The notes under the pieces: model-generated
Databases searched by the model: none
The model's input: the letters and a program-made list of their open reading frames with translations, nothing else
What the model was told of the DNA's origin: nothing
In this document: positions 2,838 through 21,074 of the stretch, in pieces
How positions within the stretch are numbered: position 1 is the first letter of the stretch
Layout: the number at the start of each line of letters is the position of its first letter
Translations under genes and position numbers: made by a program
Assembly: GCA_900315165.1 (NCBI GenBank)
Contig: OMXZ01000026.1
Coordinates: 1-25,434 of the forward strand
DNA length: 25,434 nt
Direction of reading: 5' to 3'
From: an uncultured Actinomycetes bacterium
Lineage (GTDB): Bacteria > Actinomycetota > Coriobacteriia > Coriobacteriales > Atopobiaceae

Positions 2838-4331
2838 CTAGAACTCCTCTTCTTCGAGGTTCGCCAGCGCCGCGATTGCGTCGTCGACGTACTGCTTGGT
2901 GGCGTAGCTCGTCAGGTCGATCGAGAGCGTGCCGCCAGAATAAGAGAGCGGGCTCTGCGCGTTGATGGTGGGCGTCGTTCCCGCCGGCCCCTGCGGACCC
3001 TGCGGTCCCGTGGCCCCCGTCTCGCCCTTGAGGTTGTGGAAGGCGAATGCGAACGTCCTGGCAGACGCCGTGCCGCCGAGCGTGACGTTCACGGAAGGCG
3101 TGCCGGTAGACGAGTCGACGGTGGCCGAGGCGCCGGTGATGGTCGCGTCCGCGCCGTCGTCGCCCGTGTCGCCCTTGGGTCCCTGCGGTCCTGTGGCGCC
3201 GGTCGCGCCGGTCTCGCCCTGTGGCCCCGTCTCACCCTGGGGGCCGGTCTCGCCCTGGATCCCCTGGATGCCCTGTGGCCCACGAAGGTCGGCCGAGCTC
3301 GTTCCCGACGCGCTTGTCACGGTCAATACCGAGCCGTTCCAGCTGTGCGTGCAAGGCGTGCCGTCGGCGCCGGCAGGCCCCGTCGCTCCCTGCGGCCCAG
3401 TCGGACCGGTCGCGCCGGTATCTCCCGTGTCGCCTTTTGGCCCTTGCGGTCCTGTGGCACCAGTCAACCCTTGGATTCCTTGCGGTCCCTGCTCGCCAGT
3501 GTCGCCCTTCGGCCCTTGCGGTCCCGTGGCGCCAGTGGCTCCCGTATCGCCCTTGTCACCCTTCGGGCCGGTGAGGCCCTGGATGCCCTGTGGCCCCTGC
3601 TCGCCCGTGTCACCTTTCGGGCCCTGGGGGCCGGTCTCGCCGGTGTCACCCTTGTCGCCCTTCACGCCCTTGGCCACGTCGGCCGTAGTCGTGCCGTTCT
3701 TGTCGGTGATCGTGATGGTGCAGCCGCCCTCGGTCTGCGTGACGGTGGCCGTCGGGCTGAAACCATCCGCGCCGTCGTAGTCTCCGCGCTGCGCAGCGGC
3801 CTGGATAGCAGCCGCGACAGCACTCGCGCTGTCCGCCGCATCCTCAGCGGCCTCGGCCGCCTCGTTGGCGGCGTCAGCGGCCTCGTTGGTGACCTCGATC
3901 GCGCCCTCGTAGCGCTTGATGGTCTCGACGAACAGTGTGAAGCCGTCCTCGCTCTCGGTGCCGCCGATGATGACGGGCTCAACCCGGATCGTGAACGCCC
4001 TCGTGGAGATGGACTTGTCATCCCAGCTCACCATGCACTGCGCGTCGACCGCGCCCTCGGTCTCCTGCATGGCCGCCGGATAGTAGACAACGTACTGCCC
4101 AAGCGAGGCGTCTATCTCCGCCATGGGCTCGCAGCCGCGCCTGCCGGTCGCCTTGTGCCGCCAGATGAAGTAGACCTCGGCCCCCGTCAGGTCGGATGCG
4201 CGTCCGCCCTGCCGAACGTGCAGCTCAAGGCCGCGCCCCGTGGCGTCCGCAGGCAACGCCACCAGGAAGTCGCCCAGCCGCTCGTCGGCCGAGTCCCATA
4301 TGATCGTGTGAAGTCCGTACCCGTCGAGCAT
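2838..4331 (-). CDS. collagen-like tail fibre with BppU-like N-terminal domain (baseplate upper protein family)
   Basis: The track ORF 2838..4778 is trimmed to the ATG at 4331, which has a GGAGAGGGGGG RBS. The upstream 150 codons are Arg/Gly read-through across the TetR gene. An alternative start is the GTG at 4379, which overlaps the TetR stop. There are more than 60 G-X-Y triplets ([22 protein letters not shown], repeated) and a C-terminal Thr/Ser-rich domain ending EEEEF. Confidence 0.7.
2990..3700. repeat. DNA-level tandem/direct repeats produced by the collagen G-X-Y coding region (e.g. duplicated block encoding [17 protein letters not shown])
   Basis: Repeated ggtcc/ggccc/cttgcggtcc 9-mers are visible in the sequence. 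They give rise to the spurious Pro/Cys/Gly-rich plus-strand ORF 2962..3780. Confidence 0.6.
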
Positions 4332-4375
4332 GCCGCCCCCCTCTCCGTAGTTGCCGAGAAGAGCATCCGCCCATG

Positions 4376-4936
4376 TCACATACTGGCCCCGCCGGCCCCC
4401 TCGAGCGCGGCCATGGTCGCCACCGCGCCGGAACCCAGCGGGCGCGATGCGAACGCGACCATCTGCCCGGCGTCGGGGGCCAGGGTCTCGTCGCCCAGCA
4501 CCGCGACGATGCCGCCGAATATGAACGTGAGGTCGCGGCGCTGCGCGTCGCCCAGATCGGACTCGGCCACGCCCGCGCCCTCCAGCCAGAGCGCGCGCAG
4601 GGAGGATGCGAGCATGCTGGTGAGCTCGGCCGACCCGCTTCTGGCAGCCAGGGTCACCCGCCGCAGGCGCCGCTCCCGCATCGGGTCCGGGTAGGGCGGC
4701 GCGCCGGCCAGCAGGTCGGAGACGAGCCTGGCGTCGAGCTCCGCCTCCAGCGCGTAACGCGCCAGGTCGGCCACGCATCCGAAGTGGTAGTAGAGGGTGT
4801 TCGGGCTCGCCCCAGCCCGCCTCGCGAGCGACACCACCTTGATTTCCGAGTAGGGCATCTCCGAAAGCATCCCCCAGAAAGCCTCGGCCAGGCGCTCCAC
4901 GGCGCCCGGGCTCGACCCCTTCGCCGGCCTCGCCAT
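4376..4936 (-). CDS. TetR/AcrR-family transcriptional regulator
   Basis: ATG at 4936 with GGGAGG 8 nt upstream. The N-terminal HTH ([17 protein letters not shown]) fits the TetR signature. Length is 186 aa. The track ORF is extended to 5002 by a non-start Met. Confidence 0.8.
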
Positions 4937-4946
4937 ACGCGCCACC

Positions 4947-5011
4947 TCCCGTAATAGTAAAGATCCGCAGGTTCTTTCAGTTTTCCCGTAATAGGAAAGC
5001 AATTACTATTT
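4947..5011. promoter_or_regulatory. tetR 5' region with two 16-bp direct repeats (tcccgtaatagTaaag at 4947-4962, tcccgtaatagGaaag at 4984-4999) and an AATAGTAA/TTACTATT inverted pair; candidate operator/promoter
   Basis: The repeats are read directly. The first repeat abuts the tetR Shine-Dalgarno sequence. The region is AT-rich and intergenic. Confidence 0.4.
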
Positions 5012-5044
5012 GAAGCAGCATAGCACAGGAAGAAGGAGGAAAGC

Positions 5045-5131
5045 ATGAGCATGGCTGACGTGTTCTGGTACGCGTGGCCCTGGGTTGTTGAACGACAAAT
5101 TGCGGACACCTCCCGGCCTCGCATTATTTAA
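5045..5131 (+). CDS. 28-aa Trp-rich small ORF (MSMADVFWYAWPWVVERQIADTSRPRII) divergent from tetR; possible leader/upstream ORF of the HXXEE gene before transposon insertion
   Basis: A perfect AGGAGG lies 5 nt upstream of the ATG. The TAA stop overlaps the proposed transposon insertion point. It is too short for the ORF track. Confidence 0.25.
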   Translation: MSMADVFWYAWPWVVERQIADTSRPRII

Positions 5132-5157
5132 TATGCGCCGCCGTTCCCTGCGCATGA

Positions 5158-5191
5158 GTTGCGGGGGCTGCCATGCGGCGGCCCCCGCAAC
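5158..5191 (-). terminator. strong GC hairpin (gttgcgggggctgcc atgc ggcggcccccgcaac, 14-bp stem with 1 mismatch) just downstream of the last gene of the transposon operon
   Basis: Read directly. No U-tract, as is common for terminators in high-GC bacteria. It lies inside the proposed left end of the element. Confidence 0.4.
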
Positions 5192-5208
5192 GTAGGCCGG
5201 TCATCGTC

Positions 5209-5472
5209 CTAGTCCACGAGGTTGTAGCGCGCAAGGCGGTCGGCGAACGCCCTGAGCCTCCTCGCGACGTCCGGGAAGTCGAGGTCGAAGCCGCGGACGG
5301 TGACCTCGATGACGGGGTCGGCCGGGAACCCCGACACGCCGAACGCCCAGTCCTCGACCTCGAAGTCGATGTCGGGGAGCCTCACCCTGACCCTGACCGG
5401 CGTCCCCGGCGGGCACTCCGCGAGCCACTCCGACAGCCACCCGGCCTCGTTCGCGCGCACCGCCCCCGTCAC
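5209..5472 (-). CDS. small hypothetical protein (87 aa, VTGAVRANEAGWLSEWLAECPPGTPVRVRVRLPDIDFEVEDW...) translationally coupled to the ATPase
   Basis: The GTG start overlaps the ATPase TGA stop as GTGA. This is the C-terminal part of track ORF 5209..6090. Its sequence looks protein-like, in contrast to the Arg-rich upstream part. No recognised domain. Confidence 0.35.
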   Translation of the reverse strand: MTGAVRANEAGWLSEWLAECPPGTPVRVRVRLPDIDFEVEDWAFGVSGFPADPVIEVTVRGFDLDFPDVARRLRAFADRLARYNLVD

Positions 5473-6281
5473 AGTATCGCCAGCTCGTCGGCCGCGCAGC
5501 GCACCATCTCGGCGTCTATCGCCCTCGCCCTCTGCTGCGCGCCTATGGTGAGGGCGTTGGTCAGCACCGAGTTGAGCCGGCGCACCGAGCCGCCGGAGCA
5601 GCCGTGGGCGCCGGCGAGCGCCGCGTCGTCGAAGATCTCGGGGTCGGCGCCGACCCTGAGCAGCATCGAGCGCGCGTAGTCGGCGGCCTCGGCCCCGTCG
5701 AGCCCGCGCATGCGGTAGCTGGCCACGAGGCGCTGCCTGAGCGACTCGTGGGGCTGGCGCGACAGGTACTGGGCGAGCACCGAGTGGCCCACCAGCACGA
5801 TCGCCAGCATGTCGCGGGAGTCCATGTCGAAGTTGGCGATCATCTGCAGGTCCCGGAGGACCGACGACTGCAGGTAGTGGGCCTCGTCTATGACCAGGGT
5901 CACGCGCTGGCGCCTCTCCTCGACGAGCGAGCGCACGCACGCCTGCACGTCGCGGAACATGTCCGACTTCTTGAAGCAGGGCTCCACGCCCAGCCCCTGG
6001 CAGAGCTCGCGGTAGAACTCCATGTTGGTGACGGTCGACAGGCACAGGTAGACCAGGCGGTTGGCGTTGGGGTTGAGCCCGTCGGCCCACGTGCGCACGG
6101 CGAAGGTCTTGCCCACGCCGGGGTCGGCGGTTATGAGGCCGATCCCGCCCGTGCGGGCGAGGTGGCCCAGGCGCGCGTGCACCTGCCTCAGGTCCTCGGT
6201 CGGGTGGGCCATGTCGGCCGGCAGCCCCTTCGCGAACGGGTTGCGCGACATGTTGTAGAAGCGCAGGAACTCCTCGGCCAT
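5469..6281 (-). CDS. AAA_22-type transposition ATPase (TniB/TnsC/ExeA-like)
   Basis: Walker A DPGVGKTF and Walker B LVIDEAHYL are present. Length is 270 aa. It lies immediately downstream of the transposase with a 4-nt gap. Confidence 0.75.
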   Translation of the reverse strand: MAEEFLRFYNMSRNPFAKGLPADMAHPTEDLRQVHARLGHLARTGGIGLITADPGVGKTFAVRTWADGLNPNANRLVYLCLSTVTNMEFYRELCQGLGVEPCFKKSDMFRDVQACVRSLVEERRQRVTLVIDEAHYLQSSVLRDLQMIANFDMDSRDMLAIVLVGHSVLAQYLSRQPHESLRQRLVASYRMRGLDGAEAADYARSMLLRVGADPEIFDDAALAGAHGCSGGSVRRLNSVLTNALTIGAQQRARAIDAEMVRCAADELAIL

Positions 6282-6285
6282 GCCG

Positions 6286-7590
6286 CTACGCCCCCTCCCC
6301 GGCGCCCCAGTCGATCGAGTACGGCCGCACCCGCGGGGCCTCGGAGTTGGCGGCCTTGTCGGTGGGCGCGAGCCGCCGGCGCGAGCCGTCGGGCATGGCC
6401 AGCCACACGTCGCCCTCGCGGCCCGGCGTGAAGCGCAGCTCGACCCGCTCGCCGACGAGCCCCATCGGCACGTCGTAGAGCACGTGGTCGACGCGCACGG
6501 TGGCGTCGTTCGCCACCTTGCGCGTGACCCGGTTGCGGAAGGCCTCGTCGAGGGCCCCCTCGCCGCCGTCGAGGAAGCGCAGGCGGTCGGCCTCGGCGGC
6601 GAAGGCCTCGTTGGGCGCCAGCCCGGTGGACGAGTGGACCGCCGAGTTGTATGCGGCGACCCACCTGGCCAGCGCCGAGTTGAGGGCGTCCAGCGACTCC
6701 CTCGCCTCCTCGGGCAGCACCGACAGGAAGCGCATGCGGATCGTGCGGTTGAGGCGCTCGACCTTGCCCTTCGCGGCGCCGTCGCGCACCGCGGCGTGCA
6801 GCAGCACGATGCCCAGGCCGCCGCAGATGAGCGAGAGCTGGGCGTTCCTGTACGGCCCGCCGTTGTCGACGAACAGCCTCTCGGGGACCCCGTGCGACGC
6901 CACGGCGGCGCGCAGCGTCCCCTGGAAGCTGGCCGCGTCGTCGCGCGCCACGAAGCGGGCGGCCACGACCTTGCGCGACCTGTCGTCGATGATCGCCTGC
7001 AGGTAGGCGCGCCGGGGCGGCTGCCCCACGTGGGGGCCGTGGAGCGTGTCGGCCTGCCAGATGCCGTTGACGCGCGCCGCCTCGAAGGCGCGCCGGTCCT
7101 TGGCGGGCGCCTCCCCCCCGGGCAGGGGGTTGGCCCTGAACCACCGCTGCACAGTGGCCACCGAGAGCTCGCCCGCGGCCACGTAGCCCTCCTCCACCAG
7201 CCGCTCGTGGACCATCTTGGCGCTGATGCCGGGGTGCTCGGCGCGCATGGCCTGCACGTCGGCGCCGAGGTCGGCGTCGATCCGCCTGCTCGTGCCCAGG
7301 TCGCTGCGGCCCTTGGGCATGAGCCCCTCGAAGCCGAGCTTGAGGTACCTGCGCCTCCAGCTGGCGAGCGTCGAGGGCTTGAGCCGCACCCTCGTGCCGT
7401 CGGGCAGCCCGACGGGCTCGGCGCACACCCTCCTGAAGTACTCGGCCATGCTGGCGTCCGGGTAGGTCCCGTTCACCGCGGGCGCTACGAGCCCGAACTT
7501 GTACTCGGCGAGCTCGACCCGCCTCTTCTCCTTGGCGTCCACCGCCACACACCGTCCTCTCGGTCGCGTCGCGCACCATTGCGCGCACAC
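6286..7590 (-). CDS. DDE (rve-fold) transposase with Mu-transposase-type C-terminal domain (TniA/TnsB/Tn552 p480-like)
   Basis: The catalytic triad context is WQADTLHGP ... FVDNGGPY ... KGKVERLNRTI. The C-terminal segment ATVRVDHVLYDVPMGLVGERVELRF resembles the Mu C-terminal beta-barrel domain. The true start may be an internal GTG (VAVDAKEKRR...). Confidence 0.8.
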   Translation of the reverse strand: MCAQWCATRPRGRCVAVDAKEKRRVELAEYKFGLVAPAVNGTYPDASMAEYFRRVCAEPVGLPDGTRVRLKPSTLASWRRRYLKLGFEGLMPKGRSDLGTSRRIDADLGADVQAMRAEHPGISAKMVHERLVEEGYVAAGELSVATVQRWFRANPLPGGEAPAKDRRAFEAARVNGIWQADTLHGPHVGQPPRRAYLQAIIDDRSRKVVAARFVARDDAASFQGTLRAAVASHGVPERLFVDNGGPYRNAQLSLICGGLGIVLLHAAVRDGAAKGKVERLNRTIRMRFLSVLPEEARESLDALNSALARWVAAYNSAVHSSTGLAPNEAFAAEADRLRFLDGGEGALDEAFRNRVTRKVANDATVRVDHVLYDVPMGLVGERVELRFTPGREGDVWLAMPDGSRRRLAPTDKAANSEAPRVRPYSIDWGAGEGA

Positions 7591-7633
7591 GCGCGATGAT
7601 GGGGCAGGCGGGGGGCGGCCGCCAGGCGCCGAC

Positions 7634-8152
7634 CTATGTGGAGGGCCCCGGGGCCGGCGGCGAGGGCCCGCGCGGATTGTTTAATCTGACGCGCTCGGCG
7701 AAGCGCGTGCCGTAGGCGGCCGCGTGCAGCGCGGGCACGGCGCCCACGCCGGCCGAGGCCAGCGCGGCGTCGACGGCGGCCCTCGAGGCGCCGCAGGCGA
7801 GCAGCGCGCAGGCCCGCCTCCTGGCGCCGGACAGCAGTCGCCTGCGCGTCGTCTCGGATATCCCGAACGTACGCCTGACCTCGGCGTTCGAGGCGCCGGA
7901 GGCCCACGTGGCCAGCACGGCGAGCACGAGCGCCTCCGAGTGCTGCAGGTAGGGGACGACGCCCGGCGGGATCAACGCGTGCGTGGCCAGGCAGCTCATG
8001 CACCGCACGCGCCTGACGGCGATGCGCTCCTCGCGGCCCCTGTGGACGACGTGGCGCAGGTAGCTGCCGTGGGGCGCGTAGTTGCCCGGGCAGCCGCAGC
8101 GCGGGCAGGGCAGTGCCAGCGGGTTGCCGCCGCGGCCGTCTTCTCTTAGCAT
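7634..8152 (-). CDS. Zn-ribbon (CPRCG...HGSYLRH...RCMSC) plus C-terminal HTH (AEVRRTFGISETTRRRL) protein, probable accessory/regulatory component of the transposon
   Basis: It is the first gene of the co-directional four-gene block, with a Cys4/His pattern and an HTH-like helix. The C-terminal tail overlaps the inverted repeat TTAATCTGACGC at 7681-7692. Confidence 0.5.
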   Translation of the reverse strand: MLREDGRGGNPLALPCPRCGCPGNYAPHGSYLRHVVHRGREERIAVRRVRCMSCLATHALIPPGVVPYLQHSEALVLAVLATWASGASNAEVRRTFGISETTRRRLLSGARRRACALLACGASRAAVDAALASAGVGAVPALHAAAYGTRFAERVRLNNPRGPSPPAPGPST

Positions 8153-8374
8153 GGTGGCAGGCCTCCCGGGCGATCGCCCGCGGTCGGGGGCGGCGCGCGT
8201 TCAGCTTGCCGGCGTGGTGCGCGCCGCCCGTGCTTGCGTTGTGGTGACAAGCATAGCGGCGTGCGTATTAATTAATTAATTAATGTGCAAAGCTGCGTCA
8301 GATTAATTAATGCGTCAACAAGAGGCCGGAAACGGCGTCAACAGACTGCAGCTCTACACTGGGTGGGTCTGGGG

Positions 8375-9055
8375 ATGGGGATTGTGATGCTCGTCCTGCT
8401 CTTCGCCACGGACCTGTTGCGCGGGTCGGACGCGCCGCGCGTGCGCGACCCCTACTGGCTGGCGTGGGCCGCCATGCCGGCCTACCTCGTCCACCAGTTC
8501 GAGGAGTACGCCCTGAACATAGCGGACGGCAACTACGTCATTGTCGAGCAGGTGTTCGTCAACGCGGGTGGTATCATGGACCTCTCGGCCCTGCCCTTGT
8601 TCCACTTCCCGCTCGTGAACATCGCGCTGGTGTGGGCGGGCGTGCCGCTCGCCGCTTGGCTGGGCGCAAGGCTGAGTAACCCCGTCGTGGCGCTCTCGCC
8701 CTACGGCTTCATCCTGGTCAACGGCCTCATGCACTTCGCCATGACCGTCGTGCGCGGCGTCCCCGTGGCCCTGAACCCCGGCTTCTTCACCGGGACGCTG
8801 CTGTTCTTGCCCCTCGTGGCCGTCGTCATCGTGGCGTGCGCCCGGGGCGGCCTCGTGCGCGGCGGCGGCATCGCGGCCTTCCTGGTGGCGGGGGCCATCG
8901 CGCACGTGCTGCTGGGCGCGGGATACGCCATGTCGGCCGTCGGCGGCCCCGCAGGCGTTGCCGTGCTCGACCTCCTCGCAGGGCTCTCGCCGGCTCTCCT
9001 GGCCTGGGCCTTCTGCAGGATCTTCAAGGTGAAGCTTCCGGGTGGGGATCGCTAG
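8375..9055 (+). CDS. HXXEE-motif polytopic membrane protein
   Basis: The YLVHQFEEY motif is followed by multiple hydrophobic helices. The track ORF begins at 8285 inside the (TTAA)n tract. A start at ATG 8375 or GTG 8363 is more likely. It converges on the Tal-like pseudogene with a 4-nt overlap. Confidence 0.6.
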   Translation: MGIVMLVLLFATDLLRGSDAPRVRDPYWLAWAAMPAYLVHQFEEYALNIADGNYVIVEQVFVNAGGIMDLSALPLFHFPLVNIALVWAGVPLAAWLGARLSNPVVALSPYGFILVNGLMHFAMTVVRGVPVALNPGFFTGTLLFLPLVAVVIVACARGGLVRGGGIAAFLVAGAIAHVLLGAGYAMSAVGGPAGVAVLDLLAGLSPALLAWAFCRIFKVKLPGGDR

Positions 9056-10282
9056 AAGTCCAGGTCAGCCAGCTCGTCCAAATCGTCAATCGCGGTGGTC
9101 ACCGTGCTCTCCACGACCTGCACCGAGGTCGCCACGCTCAGGTTGCCGTCGATGCCGGCCACGTCGTTCTGCAGAGCGGCCACGTCGGCGGCAAGCGAGC
9201 TCGTCACGGCGTAGTCGACCTGCCGCACCGTGCCGATGGTCACGCGGCAGACGACGGCATCCCCGAACGTGCGCACGCGCTTCACGACCCGCGCCTTGAG
9301 CCGCCACTCGGGAGTCATGCTCGAATCAACGACCGCAACCTCGTCGCCCAGCCCACACTCGCCGCCGTCCAGGGCCGCAACATCTATCTCGTAGGAGACC
9401 TTCGGCTGCACCGCATCCACGAACGCCTTCCTGGTGAGCGCGAGCAGCCTGGCAGGGTCGTCGCACTCCGAGAAGATCACCTGCCCGAACGAATGAACCT
9501 TCGCCGTCCTGTCGGCGTTCCAGCGGCCCCACACGAGCCGCGCGTCCTCGTCGCCGACCCAGTTGACGCCGCCGTTGACCTCGCCGAAGGTGAGCTTCTT
9601 TACGGTAGCCGCCCGTGTAACGCCCGTCCTCGTCGGTCACGGGAAGGCCCGCGCCGAACCCGTAGAGCGCCGTGTACACGTCCTGCTCCAGGACCGTGCG
9701 CGTGCATCCTGCCATGTTCTTGCCGTAGGTGAAGCGAAGCCCACGCCAGCTGCCGAGCCTTTGTCTGAAACGGATGGACCGGGAAGCCACGCGACCGCCA
9801 GCAACCATTATCACCGGCTCCACCTCGCCGCCCCAGACCTCGGCCACCCTTCACAGTGCCCAGAGCGCGTTCACGTGATAGAGCACGCATCCAGCCGTCC
9901 CAGCCACGTCGCACGACGCAACCGTCCAGCGCGTGGGAGCTAGCACGACCGCCAACGCCTGCGCCGCAGTGCGCGAGACCAGATGCTGCTCCTCGATGAA
10001 GTCGTCAAGCAGCTCGCACAGCGAGGACTCCGCATAAACCGAACGCAGCCCCTCAAGCGGCTCGTCGGTCCTCACCACCACATGCTCGCACCATACGCCG
10101 TCGTTAAGCCACAGCAGCCTATCGCCCTTCGCAGGTACCTCGCGGCACTCGAACTCCAGCGTGTCCTCGCCGTTAAGCTCCTCGGTGTGCACCAGCTCCC
10201 CAACTACGGGCAGCATCCCGATCCGCTCGTCGAACCGGTCGAACCACCACAGGACCGGAACCGCGCCCGCCATCACAGCCAC
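9052..10282 (-). pseudogene. Tal-like tail-associated/minor structural protein gene disrupted by an in-frame TGA (9851-9853) and a +1 frameshift near 9596-9603
   Basis: Three track ORFs (9851..10282, 9326..9847, 9052..9534) join into one protein-like sequence. The first two are in the same frame and separated only by TGA. The junction of the second and third is at cgtAAAGAAGctc, where frame A stops looking like protein and frame B starts. The N-terminus contains TEELNGEDTLEFE, typical of the N-terminal region of phage minor structural (anti-receptor) proteins. Confidence 0.5.
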
Positions 10283-13237: not shown

Positions 13238-13756
13238 CTACTGCTTGTCGGTATCGTCTGAAAGCCCGGCGACCTCGCGCCAGTGCTTGAGCGTCTTGCC
13301 CTCGTCGGTTGCGGCACCGGCGTTGGGAAGCCCTGTCGCACCGGCAGCGCCCTCGTTCGCCATGTGCTTGGCGAACAGCCACGGCTCGCCAGCCTTGAGC
13401 TTGTCGATGTCGCCCTCGTAGTCGGGCAGCACGGCGCGCGCCGCCTTCACATTGCGGCATCCCGCGAGCTGAAGCGAGAAGTCAACGCGCTCGTCGGCGG
13501 ACTGCTGCTTGAGTGACGCGATCTCGCCACGAAGCTGCTCTGCCGTCTCGGCGTTCTTCGCCGCCTCGGCCACCTGCGCCTCAAGGGCCGCGATTTTCTC
13601 GTCGCGCCCGGCTATCTGCTTCTCGTAGTCGGGAGTCTGGCCGCCTACCTGCGGCTGGCCCTCCTGCTGTGTTTCCTGCTGCTCTTGGCCCTGCTGTTGC
13701 GACGCGTTCTCCGAACCCTGCGTGGCTTCCTGGCCGCCATTGGTCTCACCGTCCAT
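13238..13756 (-). CDS. head scaffolding protein (Gln/Glu-rich, coiled-coil)
   Basis: ATG at 13756 with an AAGGCGG RBS. The track start at 13792 is a TTG. It has a QQQGQEQQETQQEGQ low-complexity tract and coiled-coil character, and lies immediately upstream of the capsid gene. Confidence 0.65.
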   Translation of the reverse strand: MDGETNGGQEATQGSENASQQQGQEQQETQQEGQPQVGGQTPDYEKQIAGRDEKIAALEAQVAEAAKNAETAEQLRGEIASLKQQSADERVDFSLQLAGCRNVKAARAVLPDYEGDIDKLKAGEPWLFAKHMANEGAAGATGLPNAGAATDEGKTLKHWREVAGLSDDTDKQ

Positions 13757-13912
13757 GCTGTACCGCCTTTCGTTTCCTTGGACGGCCAACAAGAAGGCAG
13801 CCCACCAACCTGCGATGAGGTTAGCGGGCTGTCACAAGGTGGCTAAGCCAGGTATCGGATAGGCTTTAATTACCGTTTTACAAACGTGTCTGAAATGTTG
13901 CTGATCATTGGG

Positions 13913-15166
13913 CTACTTCCAGACTCGATCATTGTAAGGAGTGGATTCAACCCCTTCGGCCTGCAGGTTTTTAACCATCCGGTCTAGCTTTCCTCGCCAC
14001 ATGGCTTTAAACCAGCGAGTGTCACCGAACCAGCGAACGAGTGTTGGGCTTATAGCATAATATGCCTTGATGAACGCACGGCCACGACGAGTCTCTGCGA
14101 GAGTGTAATCGCGGTAACGTCGAAGCGTCCATACCTGCGGGCAATCATATGAACCGTATACCGCGGTAGCAACATAACAGCCGCCGCTTTGAGGTGTGGG
14201 CCTTTCAGGTATGGTGTAGGTTGGGTCTATTTTCTTGATTGCCTCATGCCATTCCATGATTTTGTCTGTACGCCCCTGTTTGGCAGCAGGAGTGAGTGTA
14301 TATTCATGTACCCATGAACCGCTAGACAAGGTCCACGACCACGAATTGATGAGTTTGTCTTGTACGCCAATCAAATTCTTATATCTGACAACGTCTGCCT
14401 CATCGTCACCATCATCTAGACCAATTGCGACCTCTAGTAGATTAAGGACGCAATCACCACGCTCGATATATTTCTCCCAACTGTACTTCATGGGGTGATC
14501 TTCGCCCCAGAAATCTGGCATGATATGATCGTTCCATGCGTCCATCGCACTATTGTTGATCATTGTGGCGAGCTGTGCATTGATGTCATCTGTAGACGTT
14601 CCACATTTGATTAAGAGTGCAAGCGCGGATGTTTTAACTTCTACTAAGCAAGAAAGAATCGTCGTCGCCTGTTCTTTGTAGCCTGTTTTGCCGAAGTTTC
14701 CACAACACAATCGCATGAGAGCGAGAGACAGCTTGGTTGTCTCCTCGCTTACGGTCTTTTTAACATCTTCAGACTTGTTTTCAGGAGCGTTCTCTACTGC
14801 GTTTGAAAAACAGTTTATCGCCTCGCCTATGCGCAGATTTGCGATGGTCGACTGCCAGCCAGCCGCTTTTCCCTTCAGGAGCCAGGCTTCGTAATTCTTA
14901 TCGTCTACTTCCAGGACCCTGTTGCAGTATTCCTCCGCTTCCTTTTGATTGTCTGCATCGTAGGCTTTTTTAGCTATAGACAGGTAGTTTTTAATTCGGT
15001 CCGACCTATCAACCTTAACGGTTCCAGTAACCTCTACGGTTCCCTCGACCATCATCTTCTTAGCTTCTTCGATCGAATACTTGCAGCCACACGATTGGCA
15101 GACAAACACACCTCCGTCTTTCATAAGGTCTGTGCTTCCGCACATTTCACAGGTCAACTGCTTCAT
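13913..15166 (-). CDS. Zn-ribbon (CEMCGS...CQSCGC) / TPR-like / conserved Cys-containing C-terminal domain (GGCYVATAVYGSYDCPQVWTLRRYRD) protein; last gene of the candidate defence operon
   Basis: Length is 417 aa. The ATG overlaps the upstream TGA as ATGA. GC is low, about 45%. Confidence 0.65.
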   Translation of the reverse strand: MKQLTCEMCGSTDLMKDGGVFVCQSCGCKYSIEEAKKMMVEGTVEVTGTVKVDRSDRIKNYLSIAKKAYDADNQKEAEEYCNRVLEVDDKNYEAWLLKGKAAGWQSTIANLRIGEAINCFSNAVENAPENKSEDVKKTVSEETTKLSLALMRLCCGNFGKTGYKEQATTILSCLVEVKTSALALLIKCGTSTDDINAQLATMINNSAMDAWNDHIMPDFWGEDHPMKYSWEKYIERGDCVLNLLEVAIGLDDGDDEADVVRYKNLIGVQDKLINSWSWTLSSGSWVHEYTLTPAAKQGRTDKIMEWHEAIKKIDPTYTIPERPTPQSGGCYVATAVYGSYDCPQVWTLRRYRDYTLAETRRGRAFIKAYYAISPTLVRWFGDTRWFKAMWRGKLDRMVKNLQAEGVESTPYNDRVWK

Positions 15167-15651
15167 TGATGTCTTCCTTTCTGGTTGTTTGTCTTTCCGA
15201 CTTCCACCTCTCTATAGATGCGATAGATAGAATCCAGGTAGCCTACGGGCATTGCAATATAAGATGTTTGCCCGTATTTCCCGAAATCCCTAAGCTCGGC
15301 GTAAGCTTTTCCGTTTACCATGTAAATCTCTACTTGCCCATGTGCGATTGCATTTCTAACGTGGCGAACGAACTCCTGGCCCTCGGACCCGTCACAAGAG
15401 AAGAGCGCGAAGGGAGTGCGCTTCCTGTTTCTCTTCGTACGAATGACGGGATAGCTATCAGCATTTGTCTTCCTCTTGAAGGTTCTGTCACCAAAACCCT
15501 CCAAGCGTTTCAGCTTCTTTGTAAATCTCCCTTTGCTCACCGCGTCCCAAGGCGTACCCGTAAAACGAGCATCATCAAACAGCCAGTCATAAAGAGCAGG
15601 CGCGTCCTCTAACAGCTTCTTTTCGTCAACCTGCTGGAAGAAAGACCCCAT
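15163..15651 (-). CDS. small HEPN-like protein (Rx4-6H motif RHVRNAIAHG), putative RNase effector
   Basis: Length is 162 aa. The RN..AH motif is characteristic of Abi/HEPN families. It is tightly coupled to both neighbours. Confidence 0.55.
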   Translation of the reverse strand: MGSFFQQVDEKKLLEDAPALYDWLFDDARFTGTPWDAVSKGRFTKKLKRLEGFGDRTFKRKTNADSYPVIRTKRNRKRTPFALFSCDGSEGQEFVRHVRNAIAHGQVEIYMVNGKAYAELRDFGKYGQTSYIAMPVGYLDSIYRIYREVEVGKTNNQKGRHQ

Positions 15652-15652
15652 C

Positions 15653-16321
15653 CTATTTCGACCCCTTTAAGACCATGCTTCTTTCGTCGATTAATCGGGA
15701 AAGCTCTCTCAGGCGATCCACCTCTAGGTCGCTATCAGCTTCAATAGCGCTTATTTGATCGCTGATCATCGCGTCGAGCTCGACAACTGCAGAAGTGCTT
15801 CGCTGGTCAGCAAAGCGCACCTTCTCAATAATCTCGTAAATCAACTTGCCGGATCCGTCGCTTGCGTCTACGGCAACGCTCAGGCGATTCAAACGCAAGA
15901 GCGCATCGCTCATGGCATTCGTTTCGTTCGAGACGTCTTGATCGACCTTGTTCGCATAATCCATGGCCTTGTCAGCGCCGATAGTGCAGGCGCAGCATAC
16001 TGCCAACAGCAGTATGCCGACAATGGCTAAGACAGCGATGCTGTCTGGCGCAATAAGGCAGATTGCCAGTCCGACAACCATTTGAACGACAAGGCATATC
16101 GCGGCGATTGCAAGCCTCGGATATGACCTGAACAGCCCCTCGGCACCAGGCTCGCGACGAGAAAGGCTTACTGCCAGGATCGATGCCTGCAAGACAGCGA
16201 ATAAGAGCGCGAGCCAAGTGGTGGTGTCGCAAACAGTCCCGATGACAAGTACGGCGGTGTACGCCACGACTAGGACCACGATGATGAGTAGTGAGGTGGC
16301 TTTGCCTTTCGCGCTTGCCAT
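15653..16321 (-). CDS. membrane protein with 4 N-terminal TM helices and a C-terminal coiled-coil domain
   Basis: Length is 222 aa. AGGAGG overlaps the SPFH stop codon. Hydrophobic segments are clear in the sequence. Confidence 0.6.
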   Translation of the reverse strand: MASAKGKATSLLIIVVLVVAYTAVLVIGTVCDTTTWLALLFAVLQASILAVSLSRREPGAEGLFRSYPRLAIAAICLVVQMVVGLAICLIAPDSIAVLAIVGILLLAVCCACTIGADKAMDYANKVDQDVSNETNAMSDALLRLNRLSVAVDASDGSGKLIYEIIEKVRFADQRSTSAVVELDAMISDQISAIEADSDLEVDRLRELSRLIDERSMVLKGSK

Positions 16322-16327
16322 ACGTTG

Positions 16328-17464
16328 CTACCTCCTTGTCCCGCATTCAGGGCAGAACTTCTCGGAAGGCTGGAACGGCCTGCCGCATTCGGAGCAGAAC
16401 TTCGCAACGGCGCCTGATGATGGATTTCCTTCCGATTCCGTTGCTTCTGGTTTAGGAACACCGCCTGGGCCAGCCGCTAGGTTAACCGTCCCCATGGCGT
16501 CCGACATCGCGCCGCCGACCATGTTGCCGACCGGCCCGCCAACGCCGGCAATCATGCCGAGGCCGATGCCCATGTTCAAGAATTCCCCGACGCCCTCGTT
16601 TGCAGCTACCTTTTCGGCCACATCGAAACCGCGCTCCTGCTGGTACGTGTAGCCCTCTATGCGACGTTTGTCCGCCGTGGCCGTAGCCTCGATGACCGTC
16701 TTCTTAGCCTCGGTCTCTTGGTTGATGACACCTACCTGCTGTTCGATTTGCGCCTCCCTTACATCGGCATACTGCCGGAAGTAGAGCTCGCGAAAACGCT
16801 CGTATATGGGGTCGCCCTCCGGTCGTATGACGGTGGTCACGAGGAACTGGGTCAGCTCGATGCCATACTCAGCAAAATCGGGACGCAACCGGTCCTTCAC
16901 GTCATCGGACAGCTCGCCAAGATGGGCATCCAGCTCGAATATGCTCAGCTTCTGCTGCTGTATCGCCTGGACCAAAGCGGCTTTGACCCTCGTCTGGAGG
17001 AACGCCTTGAAGTACGCGATCAGTTTGTCTTGGGAGAGAATCGCCTCGGTCCCCACGATCTTGACGAGGAGTTTCTTCGCTTCGCGCACGGCGAGCGCCA
17101 TCTCGCCCGAGACCCCGATGGAGAGGGGGAACCCGAATTCGGGCTCCATATACTGCACTTTGGAATTGGTGCCCCAGGCGATGCCCATCTGCTCCGTGAG
17201 GTTGATGAAGTAGACCTCGGCATGGAACGGCGACACGCCACCACTGGGGAGGTTGACAATCTTGTTCACGAGCGGGAGATTCTGGGTCTCGAGCGTGTGG
17301 CGTCCGGGACCGAACAGGTCGAGAGCCTGTCCGTTCAGGAAGAATATCGCCTCCTGCGACTCATGGACGATGAGCTGGGAAGCGGTGTTGAAGTCCTCGC
17401 TTGGATGCTTCCAGACGAATGTGCGGTTGTCGCCCTCATACTTGATGACGTCTATGATGCTCAT
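16328..17464 (-). CDS. SPFH/Band-7 domain protein with Gly/Met-rich linker and C-terminal double CxxC zinc ribbon (COG4260, B. subtilis YdjI-like)
   Basis: It is trimmed to the ATG at 17464 (MSIIDVIKYEGDNRTFVWKHP...). The 17494 start is a GTG. The N-terminal pattern and the C-terminus KFCSECG...KFCPECG match YdjI-type proteins. Confidence 0.8.
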   Translation of the reverse strand: MSIIDVIKYEGDNRTFVWKHPSEDFNTASQLIVHESQEAIFFLNGQALDLFGPGRHTLETQNLPLVNKIVNLPSGGVSPFHAEVYFINLTEQMGIAWGTNSKVQYMEPEFGFPLSIGVSGEMALAVREAKKLLVKIVGTEAILSQDKLIAYFKAFLQTRVKAALVQAIQQQKLSIFELDAHLGELSDDVKDRLRPDFAEYGIELTQFLVTTVIRPEGDPIYERFRELYFRQYADVREAQIEQQVGVINQETEAKKTVIEATATADKRRIEGYTYQQERGFDVAEKVAANEGVGEFLNMGIGLGMIAGVGGPVGNMVGGAMSDAMGTVNLAAGPGGVPKPEATESEGNPSSGAVAKFCSECGRPFQPSEKFCPECGTRR

Positions 17465-17480
17465 GTAAAGTAGGCCCCCA

Positions 17481-17620
17481 TCGAAAACGTACACGTTTTG
17501 GAGGGGCGAAAAACTTGGTCGGGCAGGGTTGCAGTTGGCCTATTTGCTGGGCATATGCAAAGGTCGCTAGCGTATAATGACCCACTAAGTGACAAAAGCA
17601 AAACGTGTAGTTTTTGGTGC
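17481..17620. promoter_or_regulatory. two about 24-bp imperfect inverted repeats (tcgAAAACGTacACGTTTTggagg at 17481-17504; gcAAAACGTGTAgtttttggtgc at 17598-17620) flanking a roughly 90-bp spacer that carries a perfect TATAAT (17573-17578) on the plus strand and a perfect TTGACA (complement of 17621-17626) on the minus strand
   Basis: Read directly. It lies between the SPFH operon start and the 3' end of the serine invertase gene. It is a candidate for hix-like recombination sites or repressor operators. Confidence 0.3.
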
Positions 17621-17658: not shown

Positions 17659-18273
17659 TCAGTCATTGCCATCATCGGTGGCATCTTCCTTGAGCCATCG
17701 ATCGAAGGTGCTTGCAGAAACCTTGAGTCGCGTGGCCGCCTCTTGCCTTGTCAGGTGCCCTCCGAGGTAGGATTCCTTCGTGCTCGTATAGCACGCCGGA
17801 CGCTTCTTTTTCGGTCTGCCGAATCGCACACCACGTGCCTGAGCTGCGGCGATGCCCTCCGCCTGCCGCTGCTTGATGTTCTCTCGCTCCATCTGGGCAA
17901 CGTAGGATAACAGTTGCAATACGATGTCCGAGATGAGCACGTTCGTCAGCCCGTCGCGGTGGTTGCGCGTGTCGAGCAGGGGCATGTCGAGAACAACTAT
18001 GGCAGCGCCGCGCTCCTTCGTGAGCAACCTCCACTGCTCCAAAATCTCATCGTAATTGCGCCCGAGTCTGTCGATGCTCTTGATGACGACCACGTCTTCT
18101 GGTCGGAGCGCTCTAAGGAGACGCTGGTATTCGGGACGTGCAAAGTCTTTGCCGCTCGCTTTGTCCATGAACACGTTATCCCGATTGACGCCGAACTCTG
18201 CAAGCGCGTCGAGTTGCCTGTCGAGGTTCTGGTCGCGCGTGGATACACGCGCATAGCCGTATACGCTGCCCAT
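17659..18273 (-). CDS. small serine recombinase, DNA invertase/resolvase type (Hin/Gin/Pin-like) with C-terminal HTH
   Basis: The N-terminus YGYARVSTRDQNLDRQ carries the catalytic Ser. Length is 204 aa, and the C-terminal HTH is RQEAATRLKVSASTFDRWL. Confidence 0.85.
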   Translation of the reverse strand: MGSVYGYARVSTRDQNLDRQLDALAEFGVNRDNVFMDKASGKDFARPEYQRLLRALRPEDVVVIKSIDRLGRNYDEILEQWRLLTKERGAAIVVLDMPLLDTRNHRDGLTNVLISDIVLQLLSYVAQMERENIKQRQAEGIAAAQARGVRFGRPKKKRPACYTSTKESYLGGHLTRQEAATRLKVSASTFDRWLKEDATDDGND

Positions 18274-18525: not shown

Positions 18526-18564
18526 ATGACACGACAAGTATTGCACATACGAAAGGAAGGCTTC

Positions 18565-19284
18565 ATGCCAACCGTGTCAATCAGAGTAAGCGACGAGCTC
18601 AAGTCTCGGCTCGACACGCTTGCGCAGGAAAGCGAGAGCACGCTGTCGGGTGTCATCGTCGAAGCGCTCAACTCCATTACCGGACTCGGCCGCGAGGACT
18701 ATCCCGAGGAGACGGCGCCCTACACCATCAACAACGCGAACCGACTCATCCTTCGCAACACCGAGCTGCTGCTCGCGCACTGCTCGGACCTTGACGAGGA
18801 CGAGCGCGAGTCCCATGCGAAGAACGTCACAATCCTTGAGGAGGGCTTCACGGGCGAGTATCACCACGTCTTCGCCGCGCTGCGCCCGGAGATTCCCAAC
18901 GCGCGCTGCGACGAGCTCTTCGACATCCTCGACATGTTCCGTGTGCTCAGGGCGTCATACAACAAGCTCCCAGACGACGAAAAGGTGCAGATCGAAGAAC
19001 GCGACATCTCGTTTCGCGGCTTCGACTACAGTGACGACGAGGAGACGGCCCTTCCCGGTTACGTCGAGTACCTGTTCGCCGACGACCGCTACACCGAGCT
19101 CGCCGAACCGCTTTCCCGCTTCTCTGACGGCGGCAACTCTCACCACCGCAACCTCGACATCTACCGCCGGATGCTGCGCTGCTTCAACCAGCTGTGGCGC
19201 AAGCACATCATCAGCTTCGACCTGCTAAGCCTCGACGAGATCAAGCAGGTCGTGTCCGCCGCCCCCTACAATTCCGGCTATTAG
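18565..19284 (+). CDS. fusion protein: N-terminal ribbon-helix-helix (CopG-like) DNA-binding domain plus C-terminal YfbU (UPF0304) family domain
   Basis: It is trimmed to the ATG at 18565 with an AGGAAGG RBS. The N-terminus VSIRVSDELKSRLDTLA has the RHH signature. The C-terminus (NNANRLILRN...ERDISFRGFDYSDDEE...YRRMLRCFNQLW...LSLDEIKQVVSA) appears collinear with E. coli YfbU, which is recalled from memory. Confidence 0.65.
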   Translation: MPTVSIRVSDELKSRLDTLAQESESTLSGVIVEALNSITGLGREDYPEETAPYTINNANRLILRNTELLLAHCSDLDEDERESHAKNVTILEEGFTGEYHHVFAALRPEIPNARCDELFDILDMFRVLRASYNKLPDDEKVQIEERDISFRGFDYSDDEETALPGYVEYLFADDRYTELAEPLSRFSDGGNSHHRNLDIYRRMLRCFNQLWRKHIISFDLLSLDEIKQVVSAAPYNSGY

Positions 19285-19296
19285 GAGGCGATCGAA

Positions 19297-20298
19297 ATGG
19301 CAGGCAACGCCAATCTGGCCCAGGCGAAAGCAGCGCACAAGAGGCCGATGCTCAGCGTGAGCCAGCAGATTGAGCGCCTGAAGGAGAAAGGCCTGACGTA
19401 CGACCTGTGCGACGAGGCCCAGGCTGCCGACATCCTCGCGAAGAAGAACAACTACCTACGCATAACCTCGTACCGAAAGCTATACGAGCGTCAGATGGAA
19501 GGCCCCAACGTCGGCAAGTACGTCAACCTCGATTTCGGCGACCTCGTGGCGATTTCGTCACTCGACAGGCAGCTGCGCGAGGCTTTCCTCACGATGACAA
19601 TCGACGTCGAGCATTTCGCCAAGTTGAAGGTGCTCTCGCAGCTCGAGAAGGAGGGCGAAGACGGCTACGCAATCGTCACGGACTTCTACGCAAGCCTGAA
19701 CCATGCAGGGCGCAACGCCATCCAAGGCGCCATGAAGGTTCGCGGCGGCGAGGGCGAGCGTCACGACGCGTACGCCGGGGACCTCATAGCCCATCACCTG
19801 CAAGACATGCCGGTCTGGGTGTTCCTGGAGGTTATCGACTTCGGGACGTTCGTCGACTTCTACCTGTTCTGCGCAGGCCGATGGCACAACGACGCAATGC
19901 TGCAAGAGCACTACGCGCTCAAGAGCGTCAAGGCGCTGCGAAACGCCACGGCACATAACCATTGCATTCTGAACGGTTTCACGAGGGCCGAGGCACGCGC
20001 AGGGTACACCACGCCGCAAGCCATCACCGACTCGCTGAATGCGGCGGGCATGCCAAGGACGAAGGCCAGGCGCGCCAAGCTCTCCAACCTCCGCATCGCC
20101 CAAATGGCAGCAACCCTGTACTGCCTGAGCACGCTCTGCACGAGCGAGTCCGCCATGGCGCGGCATGCCCGGAGACTCGCCGCGGTCCATGCCGCATACG
20201 AGGCCCATATTGACCGTTACCGCCTGAACAGCTCGTTTGTGTCGTTCTTCGACTTCCTGTTCCGTCTCGTTGACATCTGGGTGCCATGCGGGACATAA
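19297..20298 (+). CDS. abortive infection protein, Abi_2 (AbiD/AbiF-like) HEPN family
   Basis: The N-terminus has the typical motif KRPMLSVSQQIERLKEKGLTYD...NNYLRITSY. The HEPN motif LRNATAHNHCIL is present. Length is 333 aa. Confidence 0.8.
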   Translation: MAGNANLAQAKAAHKRPMLSVSQQIERLKEKGLTYDLCDEAQAADILAKKNNYLRITSYRKLYERQMEGPNVGKYVNLDFGDLVAISSLDRQLREAFLTMTIDVEHFAKLKVLSQLEKEGEDGYAIVTDFYASLNHAGRNAIQGAMKVRGGEGERHDAYAGDLIAHHLQDMPVWVFLEVIDFGTFVDFYLFCAGRWHNDAMLQEHYALKSVKALRNATAHNHCILNGFTRAEARAGYTTPQAITDSLNAAGMPRTKARRAKLSNLRIAQMAATLYCLSTLCTSESAMARHARRLAAVHAAYEAHIDRYRLNSSFVSFFDFLFRLVDIWVPCGT

Positions 20299-20327: not shown

Positions 20328-20602
20328 TAGGGGCGGGGTCGCGCAAGCGGTCTCGCTCCAGTTTTTTGTGCCTCGGTCAGGCTTAATGACCTGAAGAAGC
20401 CGCACGTCAACCATCGCTGCGCGGTAATACGACAAGCAATCCTCACGTTGTCGAATTTATCTATGCCGCCAGTCCTGGCCGCTGGCCCGCGCGCGTGCTG
20501 CCAACCACGGGCTGGGCCGCAGCCCGGCCGCCCGCGCTCCGGGTGTGCGCTCGGGCCGTTCGTGCCGCATGCCGTCCATGGCGCAGGCAAGTCTCCCGTT
20601 AC

Positions 20603-20707
20603 GGCCACAGGGGCAAACGGTGCGCGTCTTCACCACGGCTACGCCAGCCGCTTCGCGTCTGGCTCCGCAGCATCGGGTTCAGCCACGCACCGTTTGCCCC
20701 TGTGGCC
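20603..20707. repeat. perfect 22-bp inverted repeat (ggccacaggggcaaacggtgcg at 20603-20624 / cgcaccgtttgcccctgtggcc at 20686-20707) enclosing a 61-nt loop, inside an about 850-bp GC-rich tract with no convincing ORF
   Basis: Verified base by base. ORFs in this tract are mutually overlapping and have junk-like composition. Confidence 0.6.
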
Positions 20708-21074
20708 TACTGCAGCTCTCACTGATGCGCCATGGCCGCCATGCGTCACGCCCGGCCAGCGGCGCACACCCTACGCGCGGTCGTCCGGTCTGCTGCGTTT
20801 TCCGGCTCGTCCGCACGCACACGGTCCATCGTCCAGGGCGGGCGGCATAGACCTCTCGCCAGCCTCCATGTCCGGCTCCCTTGCCAGCGGCAGCTGCAGC
20901 GACACCCAGGGCACTAGCGGCCGCCAGCGCGTCCCAGACAGCCCCATATGAGGCCGTATCGGACCCGTGACAGCTCCACCAGCCAACGCACGCCACCCCA
21001 AATGCTGCCGAACCTGAAACCCGCTCCTACGGGCTTGCGACGGCCCCGTCAGGCCACCCACTGCGCCAAACATA

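Follow-up and report, generated by a model that had tools for sequence, protein, structure and literature searches.

What is the function of a tightly packed block of four genes, poorer in G+C than its surroundings, that is lodged in the head module of a prophage? The genes, here named g1 to g4, lie on the minus strand of a 25,434-nt stretch of contig OMXZ01000026.1 (assembly GCA_900315165.1) from an uncultured member of the Atopobiaceae (Coriobacteriia); this whole stretch is referred to as the window, and coordinates are window positions unless a related locus (L numbers) is named. The genes encode a soluble SPFH protein with a zinc ribbon (g1), a protein with four transmembrane (TM) helices (g2), a putative HEPN ribonuclease (RNase; g3) and a zinc-ribbon protein whose C-terminal tail varies among homologues (g4). 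The conserved unit is a tightly packed triad of g1, g2 and g4, and the quartet in the window is a rare variant with g3 added in some Coriobacteriia. The interpretation that we favour, and hold tentatively, is that the operon is the four-gene form of a widespread, mobile and previously undescribed membrane module, most likely a conflict system and probably one acting in anti-phage defence or abortive infection.

All four open reading frames (ORFs) were confirmed: g1 at 16328-17494 as listed from a GTG codon, g2 at 15653-16321, g3 at 15163-15651 and g4 at 13913-15166. An earlier note on this DNA had described them as packed and translationally coupled, and all three junctions proved exact. AGGAGG abuts the TAG stop of g1, 6 nt ahead of the g2 ATG, a single base separates g2 from g3 (TAG-G-ATG), and g3 and g4 share an ATGA overlap (15163-15166). 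Of the block that had been proposed (13913-17494), the lower end holds; because g1 begins at the ATG at 17464 both in the gene calls for identical contigs and in every homologue, the upper end of the operon is 17464 and not 17494, and the g1 product (16328-17464, minus strand) comprises 378 amino acids (aa; MSIIDVIKYEGDN). The operon is closed by a terminator-like hairpin on the same strand (13798-13831; 14-bp stem with 8 GC pairs, T-rich tail), 82 nt past the g4 stop. The dip in G+C content (GC) is real, although its size had been overstated at about 45% against 60-72%: the measured values are 58.8% for g1, 53.8% for g2, 48.5% for g3 and 47.8% for g4; the operon averages 52.6%, and its flanks have 62-68%.

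To what extent the four genes belong together was read from related loci. A g1 alignment was used to search metagenomes and recovered 343 relatives; 80 loci were retained from these and joined by 3 viral contigs, and the resulting 83 loci were scored with local hidden Markov models for g1, g2, g3, the g4 head and the CFI-box. Approximately 70 of the 83 contain g1, g2 and a g4-head protein in this order, with g1 identities of 52-71%, and g2 lies directly 3′ of g1 in every triad locus; the triad was also found in L024 (43% GC, on a relaxase element) and in L116. None of the 83 sampled loci carries g3. So widespread a triad without g3 means that the module existed first and that g3 entered it, between g2 and g4, in particular lineages.

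The full quartet was likewise found to be conserved as a unit. The same gene order is present in L001-L004, L022, L006-L011 and L023, representing at least three Coriobacteriia lineages and three backgrounds (prophage, integrase/relaxase element and chromosome), and the linkage and mobility of the genes are thus matters of direct observation. The exact g3 occurs on many prophage contigs with unchanged neighbours. On an Eggerthellaceae chromosome the order g1-g2-g3-g4 is kept with a g3 of only 41% identity, adjoining recG and rsmD and without an invertase, and in L012-L015 the genes g2-g3-g4 were found on contigs that end at g2, with a g3 of 48% identity and a g4 tail consisting of BspA-type leucine-rich repeats and a TM anchor. 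Within the quartets identity falls to 27-48% for the rapidly diverging g2 and g3, and g1 retains at least 75%; g1 is the most conserved component of the operon, being 94% identical in L006, 75% in L023 and 56% in the triad of L024. The related contigs derive from gut and rumen metagenomes and include Coriobacteriaceae and Eggerthellaceae metagenome-assembled genomes (MAGs). In a cultured organism, Butyrivibrio fibrisolvens D1, the triad is present on the 20.5-kb plasmid pNP21 (NZ_CP146965.1, L110; triad at 6700-10053 within the region 4925-10053), beside a recombinase-family gene, a type I restriction-modification (R-M) S subunit and a YoeB/RelB pair; its RefSeq annotation consists of an SPFH protein and hypotheticals only.

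The g1 protein matches Band_7_1 (PF13421) with E = 1.9e-40 and 139.2 bits against a gathering score of 24. The SPFH domain is followed by a Gly-rich stretch (aa 293-335) and by two CxxC pairs (aa 357-360 and 371-374), whose cysteines C357, C360, C371 and C374 are invariant across 4 homologues; zinc-ribbon families in Pfam were matched only below cutoff (E ~1e-4). Hydropathy analysis identified no TM or other hydrophobic segment, and no relative in the PDB was found by sequence. A Band-7 domain, a low-complexity linker, a C-terminal zinc ribbon and the lack of a TM segment are the architecture of Bacillus subtilis YdjI/SamI (PMC8581546, PMC11237479), as the earlier note had recognized in assigning g1 to COG4260/YdjI.

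The g2 protein (222 aa, minus strand) is predicted from hydropathy to contain four TM helices (approximately aa 4-29, 33-54, 68-90 and 95-115) and, from AlphaFold2 (AF2) secondary structure, a helical cytoplasmic domain, in which the motif E-K-x-R-[FY]-x-D-x-x-S is conserved. It matched nothing in Pfam, PADLOC, NCBIfam or PHROG, and its AF2 model (predicted local distance difference test score, pLDDT, 57; predicted template modelling score 0.39) was too poor for a fold search.

The g4 protein (417 aa, minus strand) begins with a zinc ribbon (aa 1-55), continues through a TPR-like unit (a weak match) and a variable middle region, and ends in a CFI-box-CTERM domain (aa 330-398, nt 13973-14179), which the earlier note had not mentioned. 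The NCBIfam model NF041770 aligns with this domain from end to end of the model, at 74.9 bits (cutoff 40); there is no TM segment in g4. Its head is shared by at least 288 protein clusters at 67-82% identity, with C6, C9, C23 and C26 invariant, and the N-terminal 55 aa are 76% identical at a locus where g3 is only 48% identical. Past approximately aa 130 the homologues are modular: 28 C-terminal types were counted among 64 proteins, including the CFI-box (~15 loci), the C-terminal domain of ribosomal protein bL12 (13), a GmrSD_C His-Me nuclease (11), LRR_5 and ankyrin repeats, a glycine-zipper TM segment and coiled coils. A conserved N-terminal 55-130 aa joined to unrelated tails (nuclease, repeat binding domains, membrane anchors) is reminiscent of polymorphic or modular conflict proteins; unlike polymorphic toxins, the g4 homologues are without secretion signals or immunity genes, are cytoplasmic and are tied to the SPFH/4-TM pair.

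Further observations concern these tails. In triads from the human gut the commonest are the bL12 C-terminal domain (E = 7e-21) and GmrSD_C (E = 2e-20; L042, 4022-5776, and L062, 3632-4936); in the ribosome, the bL12 domain binds translational GTPases. In the Firmicutes triad of L024 (4727-7401) two g4-type genes stand in tandem, one of 410 aa followed by a copy split into 121 and 306 aa, and are succeeded by an AAA_15/AAA_21 ATPase gene and a PBECR4 nuclease-like gene on the relaxase-bearing element. A shufflon, in which the invertase would swap g4 tails, was considered and rejected, as no inverted repeats are present inside or after g4.

The g3 protein (162 aa, minus strand) carries the sequence RHVRNAIAHG, in which the earlier note had seen an Rx4-6H HEPN motif. 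The motif is present, and its R-N-x3-H portion (R99-N-A-I-A-H104) is the core of the family: in an alignment of 118 members N100 and H104 never vary, and the conservation of R99 is at least 90%. An exhaustive profile search collected 210 representative clusters, nearly all of them stand-alone proteins of 145-185 aa. Taken alone, g3 scores below the Pfam threshold for pEK499_p136 (PF18736; 15.0 bits against a gathering score of 26.6, E = 0.021), as do its closest relatives (12.6-24.2 bits), and 76 of the 118 family members match PF18736 at E ≤ 1e-3 (best 5e-9); one matches the KEN/RNase 2-5A (RNase-L) HEPN family. An AF2 model built from six sequences (pLDDT 78) contains helices and a three-stranded sheet, and a fold search with it gave no significant match, solved HEPN structures included. 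A scan of viral contigs found no g3 relative. The pEK499_p136 family was assigned to the HEPN superfamily by Anantharaman et al., with links to R-M and Pgl loci (PMC3710099). Taken together, the family motif and transitive homology indicate that g3 is probably a HEPN-family protein, a divergent member of pEK499_p136 and a putative RNase. It resembles HEPN abortive-infection and toxin proteins (pEK499_p136, the Abi_2 proteins AbiD/AbiF, HEPN-MNT) in being small and stand-alone, in its R-N-x3-H motif, in the overlap of its wider family with PF18736 and in sharing its island with an Abi_2 HEPN gene. It differs from them in its sub-threshold score, in a predicted fold that matches no solved HEPN structure, in having no MNT or other known partner and in its embedding in an SPFH/membrane operon, which is unreported for pEK499_p136.

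Several loci retain remnants of the quartet. In L022 (an uncultured Coriobacteriaceae MAG) g3 is a pseudogene (3986-4474) with an in-frame stop at the invariant Tyr67, and g1, g2 and g4 are intact at 83-97% identity. L005 has the g2 C-terminal domain alone (E = 3e-25) beside an intact g3, and L016 keeps g3 together with a trace of the g4 ribbon. The 442-aa protein upstream of g3 in L016 was compared with g2 as a possible relative and showed no relationship, and apparent disruptions of g2 and g3 in L119 and L120 turned out to be scaffold N-gaps.

How does this module compare with characterized systems? The closest is the B. subtilis pspA-ydjGHI (samGHI) operon, which shares with it the YdjI/SamI build of the SPFH protein and the placing of its gene beside those of a membrane protein with a coiled-coil or helical cytoplasmic part and of a protein that starts with a zinc ribbon. 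YdjH contains a TPM domain, and YdjG two zinc ribbons, an NTF2-like domain and a TM segment (PMC11237479). In contrast, g2 is predicted to span the membrane four times, lacks a TPM domain and matches no Pfam or NCBIfam family, and g4 has one zinc ribbon, a TPR unit and a swappable tail without the NTF2-like domain or the TM segment; g2 is therefore not a YdjH homolog, nor g4 a YdjG homolog. Moreover, no PspA-family match was obtained among the scanned ORFs of the window or in related loci, the SPFH gene is first here and last there, and the present module is mobile, invertase-linked and carries a HEPN gene. Thus, of the proposal that a YdjI/YdjH/YdjG-like module had lost PspA and gained a HEPN nuclease gene, the gain is borne out by the abundance of triads lacking g3, and the equation of g2 with YdjH and of g4 with YdjG is not. 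The earlier note did not recognise that three of the genes form the conserved core, that g4 joins a constant head to exchangeable tails, or that the neighbouring invertase is accompanied by conserved inverted repeats resembling an expression switch.

A looser parallel exists with SPFH scaffold-client pairs (HflK/C-FtsH, QmcA-YbbJ/NfeD, YqiK/YuaG-YuaF), in which an SPFH protein is also encoded beside a dedicated membrane partner, over which it presumably assembles and whose activity it controls; those SPFH proteins, however, are membrane-anchored and of the Band_7 type (PF01145), their partners are proteases or NfeD proteins, and the pairs are chromosomal housekeeping genes. All domains of the quartet come from known families, whereas the combination, as triad or quartet, lies outside PADLOC v2, RefSeq names and the literature searched (CFI-box, COG4260, Band_7_1, SPFH with anti-phage, inverton with SPFH), which contained no description of such a system; the earlier note was right in treating it as undescribed.

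The operon is preceded, in the same orientation, by a gene for a small serine recombinase of the DNA invertase type (17659-18273, minus strand; 204 aa), with matches to Pfam Resolvase (E = 1.6e-34) and the PHROG 'DNA invertase' (E = 3e-58) and, below cutoff, to the Mpi family in NCBIfam. Between it and g1 is a putative invertible switch (17484-17615), in which two arms (17484-17500 and 17599-17615) enclose a 98-nt spacer. The arms agree at 15 of 17 positions. Each of them has dyad symmetry (AAAACG-TACA-CGTTTT), the two cores run in opposite directions, and the window contains no further copy of the site (0.03 expected by chance). A likeness of the arms to the Bacteroides Mpi repeat consensus was considered and is given no weight. 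In the second quartet lineage the arms are conserved and the spacer has diverged. An invertase homolog is found directly upstream of g1 in 15 of the 83 triad loci, most of which carry inverted repeats of the form GTGTAC(T/G)TTTTG / CAAAA(G)TACAC around an 80-113 nt spacer in otherwise unrelated sequence. The window spacer contains a perfect TATAAT on the plus strand (17573-17578) that points away from g1, as it does in the L006 lineage, and TATAAT faces g1 in L098 (11/12 together with its -35), L037, L046, L101 and L022. The invertase together with the conserved inverted repeats suggests an invertible promoter. Invertible promoters commonly govern costly or phage-exposed functions in gut bacteria, and the arrangement resembles serine-invertase invertons (Hin/Gin/Mpi type), where a small recombinase accompanies a segment of less than 300 bp with dyad-symmetric repeats directly upstream of an operon. 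Invertons are mostly shorter than 300 bp (PMC11602134).

Two results count against a promoter switch. A strict scan of the window spacer found no full sigma-70 consensus match, and no flipped copy was present among more than 20 assembled contigs, a sample made up of eleven copies of the locus and another ten contigs on which the exact g1 or invertase is encoded; in this respect the locus differs from known invertons. With all assembled copies in one orientation, inversion is a prediction and a role in cassette exchange is possible. The invertase and repeats would then serve as mobility sites by which the operon is moved or swapped, rather than controlling its expression. Besides the uniform orientation, this alternative would account for the joint transfer of invertase and quartet between prophage and integrative element (the invertase accompanies the quartet at 92% identity in the different, integrase/relaxase, element) and for the presence of an invertase at only 15 of 83 triads. 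It would also account for L022, where the region upstream of g1 (1990-2172) has a transposase-like ORF and an unrelated spacer in place of the invertase and homology to the window begins inside the proximal arm. It fits less well with inverted sites 80-113 nt apart exactly between the recombinase and the first gene, the classic inverton layout, with the conservation of sites and not spacers across distant loci, with a TATAAT that faces g1 in some loci and away from it in others, or with the lack of a second site pair around the whole cassette. We therefore regard cassette exchange as unlikely, though a serious contender, and retain the invertible promoter as the preferred account of these sites. 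In one metagenome copy of the locus, L118, an 88-nt deletion or rearrangement (~1113-1200) cuts the invertase to 141 aa; the switch and operon there are unchanged.

What, then, might the module do? Two features lead us to read it as a conflict system: the constant head of g4 is joined to 28 tail types including the GmrSD_C nuclease, and g2 and g3 diverge fast while g1 is conserved. The invariant R-N-x3-H core, together with the PF18736 matches of 76 of 118 relatives, argues for g3 as an effector. Since L022 has broken g3 alone and L005 has kept the g2 cytoplasmic domain with an intact g3, g3 may be toxic and restrained by g2; these decay products would fit a harmful g3 that is tolerated alongside the g2 cytoplasmic domain. 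A wider proposal, that the triad as a whole is a new and widespread anti-phage immune family of gut Firmicutes and Actinobacteria, in which an SPFH membrane guard gates interchangeable effector or sensor heads (a nuclease, a bL12 mimic, a CFI-box or, here as a gene of its own, a HEPN RNase) and the invertase provides phase variation, appears possible to us and is on the doubtful side.

The mechanism that we propose is drawn wholly from two models, the restraint of SamGH by SamI and the HEPN abortive-infection proteins. YdjI/SamI, a soluble protein, depends on partners in the membrane and holds them back (PMC8581546; bioRxiv 10.64898/2026.02.06.704340). By analogy, at the inner face of the membrane oligomeric g1 would dock on g2 and keep the system silent, and g4 would join the complex through its constant zinc-ribbon head, with the variable tail as sensor or effector. 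An envelope perturbation or a phage cue might release the brake. In the quartet variant the output would be the putative RNase g3, which the cytoplasmic domain of g2 would restrain and which, once released, could cleave RNA and arrest the cell. Expression would probably be set by the invertase flipping the ~130-bp promoter segment, the window copy being apparently in the OFF state.

Apart from the two results on the switch given above, several points weigh against this interpretation. Searched against PADLOC-DB v2.0.0, none of g1-g4 gave a match at E ≤ 0.01, the neighbouring AbiD gene being the only one to do so. The sole studied relative of g1 works in envelope-stress signalling, not in immunity, and every protein-protein contact in the scheme is inferred. 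The g4-type zinc-ribbon/CFI-box protein is also found without g1 and g2 (L025, L112-L114), and the parts of the triad are therefore not strictly interdependent. Finally, the flanks of the triad loci are mixed. A census of 148 non-redundant ORF clusters identified defence-type clusters (AAA_21/AbiLi 4, Abi_2/AbiD 2, SIR2 2, PBECR4 2, mad3 2) along with MobA/MobL, integrases, rve, resolvase and housekeeping genes, so that only ~8% of clusters, as a raw share, are defence-related. The triad is thus accessory and often mobile, with moderate defence content nearby.

These same points bear on a second alternative, in which the triad responds to envelope stress or maintains the membrane, as an analog of YdjGHI/SamGHI that works without PspA and travels as mobile cargo, and an unrelated HEPN gene, selfish or toxin-like, happened to insert into it. 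The YdjI architecture of g1 agrees with it, given that YdjI acts in the sigma-W/Psp envelope-stress response, as do the housekeeping genes that flank many triad loci, the lack of a PADLOC match and the occurrence of the triad as a unit lacking g3 at all 83 sampled loci. However, swapped tails on this scale, a nuclease among them, would be unusual for housekeeping stress modules, as would invertase control and recurrence on plasmids, prophages and mobilisable elements. Nor does an unrelated insertion sit well with a g3 whose translation is coupled to both neighbouring genes and which has been inherited together with g2 and g4 even where its identity falls to 41%, and the TPM domain of YdjH is missing from g2 and the NTF2 domain of YdjG from g4. 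We consider this explanation rather unlikely.

A third alternative would place the core of the operon in g2 and g3 as a toxin-antitoxin-like addiction pair, with g3 as toxin and the g2 cytoplasmic domain as antitoxin, stabilising the island or prophage while g1 and g4 serve a separate function. Here the remnants would be telling, with L005 keeping just the g2 C-terminal domain and intact g3 and with g3 as the sole broken gene of L022; a single base separates the two genes, and HEPN proteins are common as toxins of such pairs (PMC3710099). Yet g2 homologs occur in hundreds of triads without g3, from which it follows that the primary role of g2 is not that of an antitoxin. Furthermore, no MNT or other known HEPN antitoxin is present, with no match to a nucleotidyltransferase family in g1, g2 or g4, the g3 of L016 has an unrelated protein upstream, and the quartet order with g1 and g4 is kept down to 41% g3 identity, all of which makes a dedicated addiction pair improbable. 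An accidental grouping of the four genes, without functional link, in a decaying prophage that gathers insertions (L001 has a trio of tyrosine-recombinase genes in its head gene) can be dismissed, being already contradicted by the recurrence of their order and tight coupling in independent backgrounds and at deep divergence.

SPFH proteins are universal, and their bacterial functions are mostly unclear. The present analysis defines a module, found in hundreds of gut and rumen loci, in which the gene for an SPFH protein is linked to those for a membrane partner and for a protein whose tail is exchanged in the manner of an effector or sensor cassette, and in one lineage also to that for a predicted RNase. 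Should the module prove to be an immune system, membrane-scaffold guarding would be a new sensing principle and the gut would have a new phase-variable defence; should the immune family as a whole be real, it would give an SPFH scaffold its first direct role in prokaryotic immunity. If it is not immune in function, the loci still offer a natural variant series for working out the function of YdjI-type SPFH proteins. The quartet, its decay products (broken g3; g2 tail with g3) and the candidate switch are directly testable constructs, and pNP21 is a tractable source.

The setting of the operon agrees with the description of an insertion into a prophage head module beside a serine invertase and other defence genes. 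The host element is a siphovirus-like Coriobacteriia prophage, and the operon belongs to an island of ~6.5 kb between the portal and scaffold genes, with portal and terminase on one side and scaffold and major head genes on the other (PHROGs). The phage genome collection contained no DNA match and no match to the g1 protein. In addition to the operon and the invertase, the island carries two plus-strand genes outside the operon: one for a YfbU-domain protein (18526-19284; Pfam YfbU, E = 1.6e-34) with an N-terminal YlcI/YnfO/DUF7557-like segment and, starting 12 nt later, one for an AbiD/Abi_2 HEPN protein (19297-20298; Pfam Abi_2, E = 2.2e-21; PADLOC AbiD, E = 7.9e-21). L001-L003 keep this pair, which the remaining quartet lineages lack; the two genes could form a separate unit.

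Direct repeats at 13731 and 20733 were considered as attachment sites of the island and rejected, the match of 16 of 20 nt being too weak. In sibling prophage copies (L001, 13512-16775; L003; L004) three tandem tyrosine-recombinase genes lie at the 3′ end of the major head gene, which there encodes 328 aa against 343 aa; the presence of this trio in a head gene indicates that the prophage is decaying and gathering insertions. An Rfam scan of the window gave no match, and this includes an imperfect long palindrome of ~390 nt (20460-20851) that contains no convincing ORF. The palindrome lies at the island edge, between the AbiD-like gene and the portal gene, and is made up of nested inverted repeats with ~72% GC, with a single-strand fold energy of -140 kcal/mol (z = -9.1 against shuffles).

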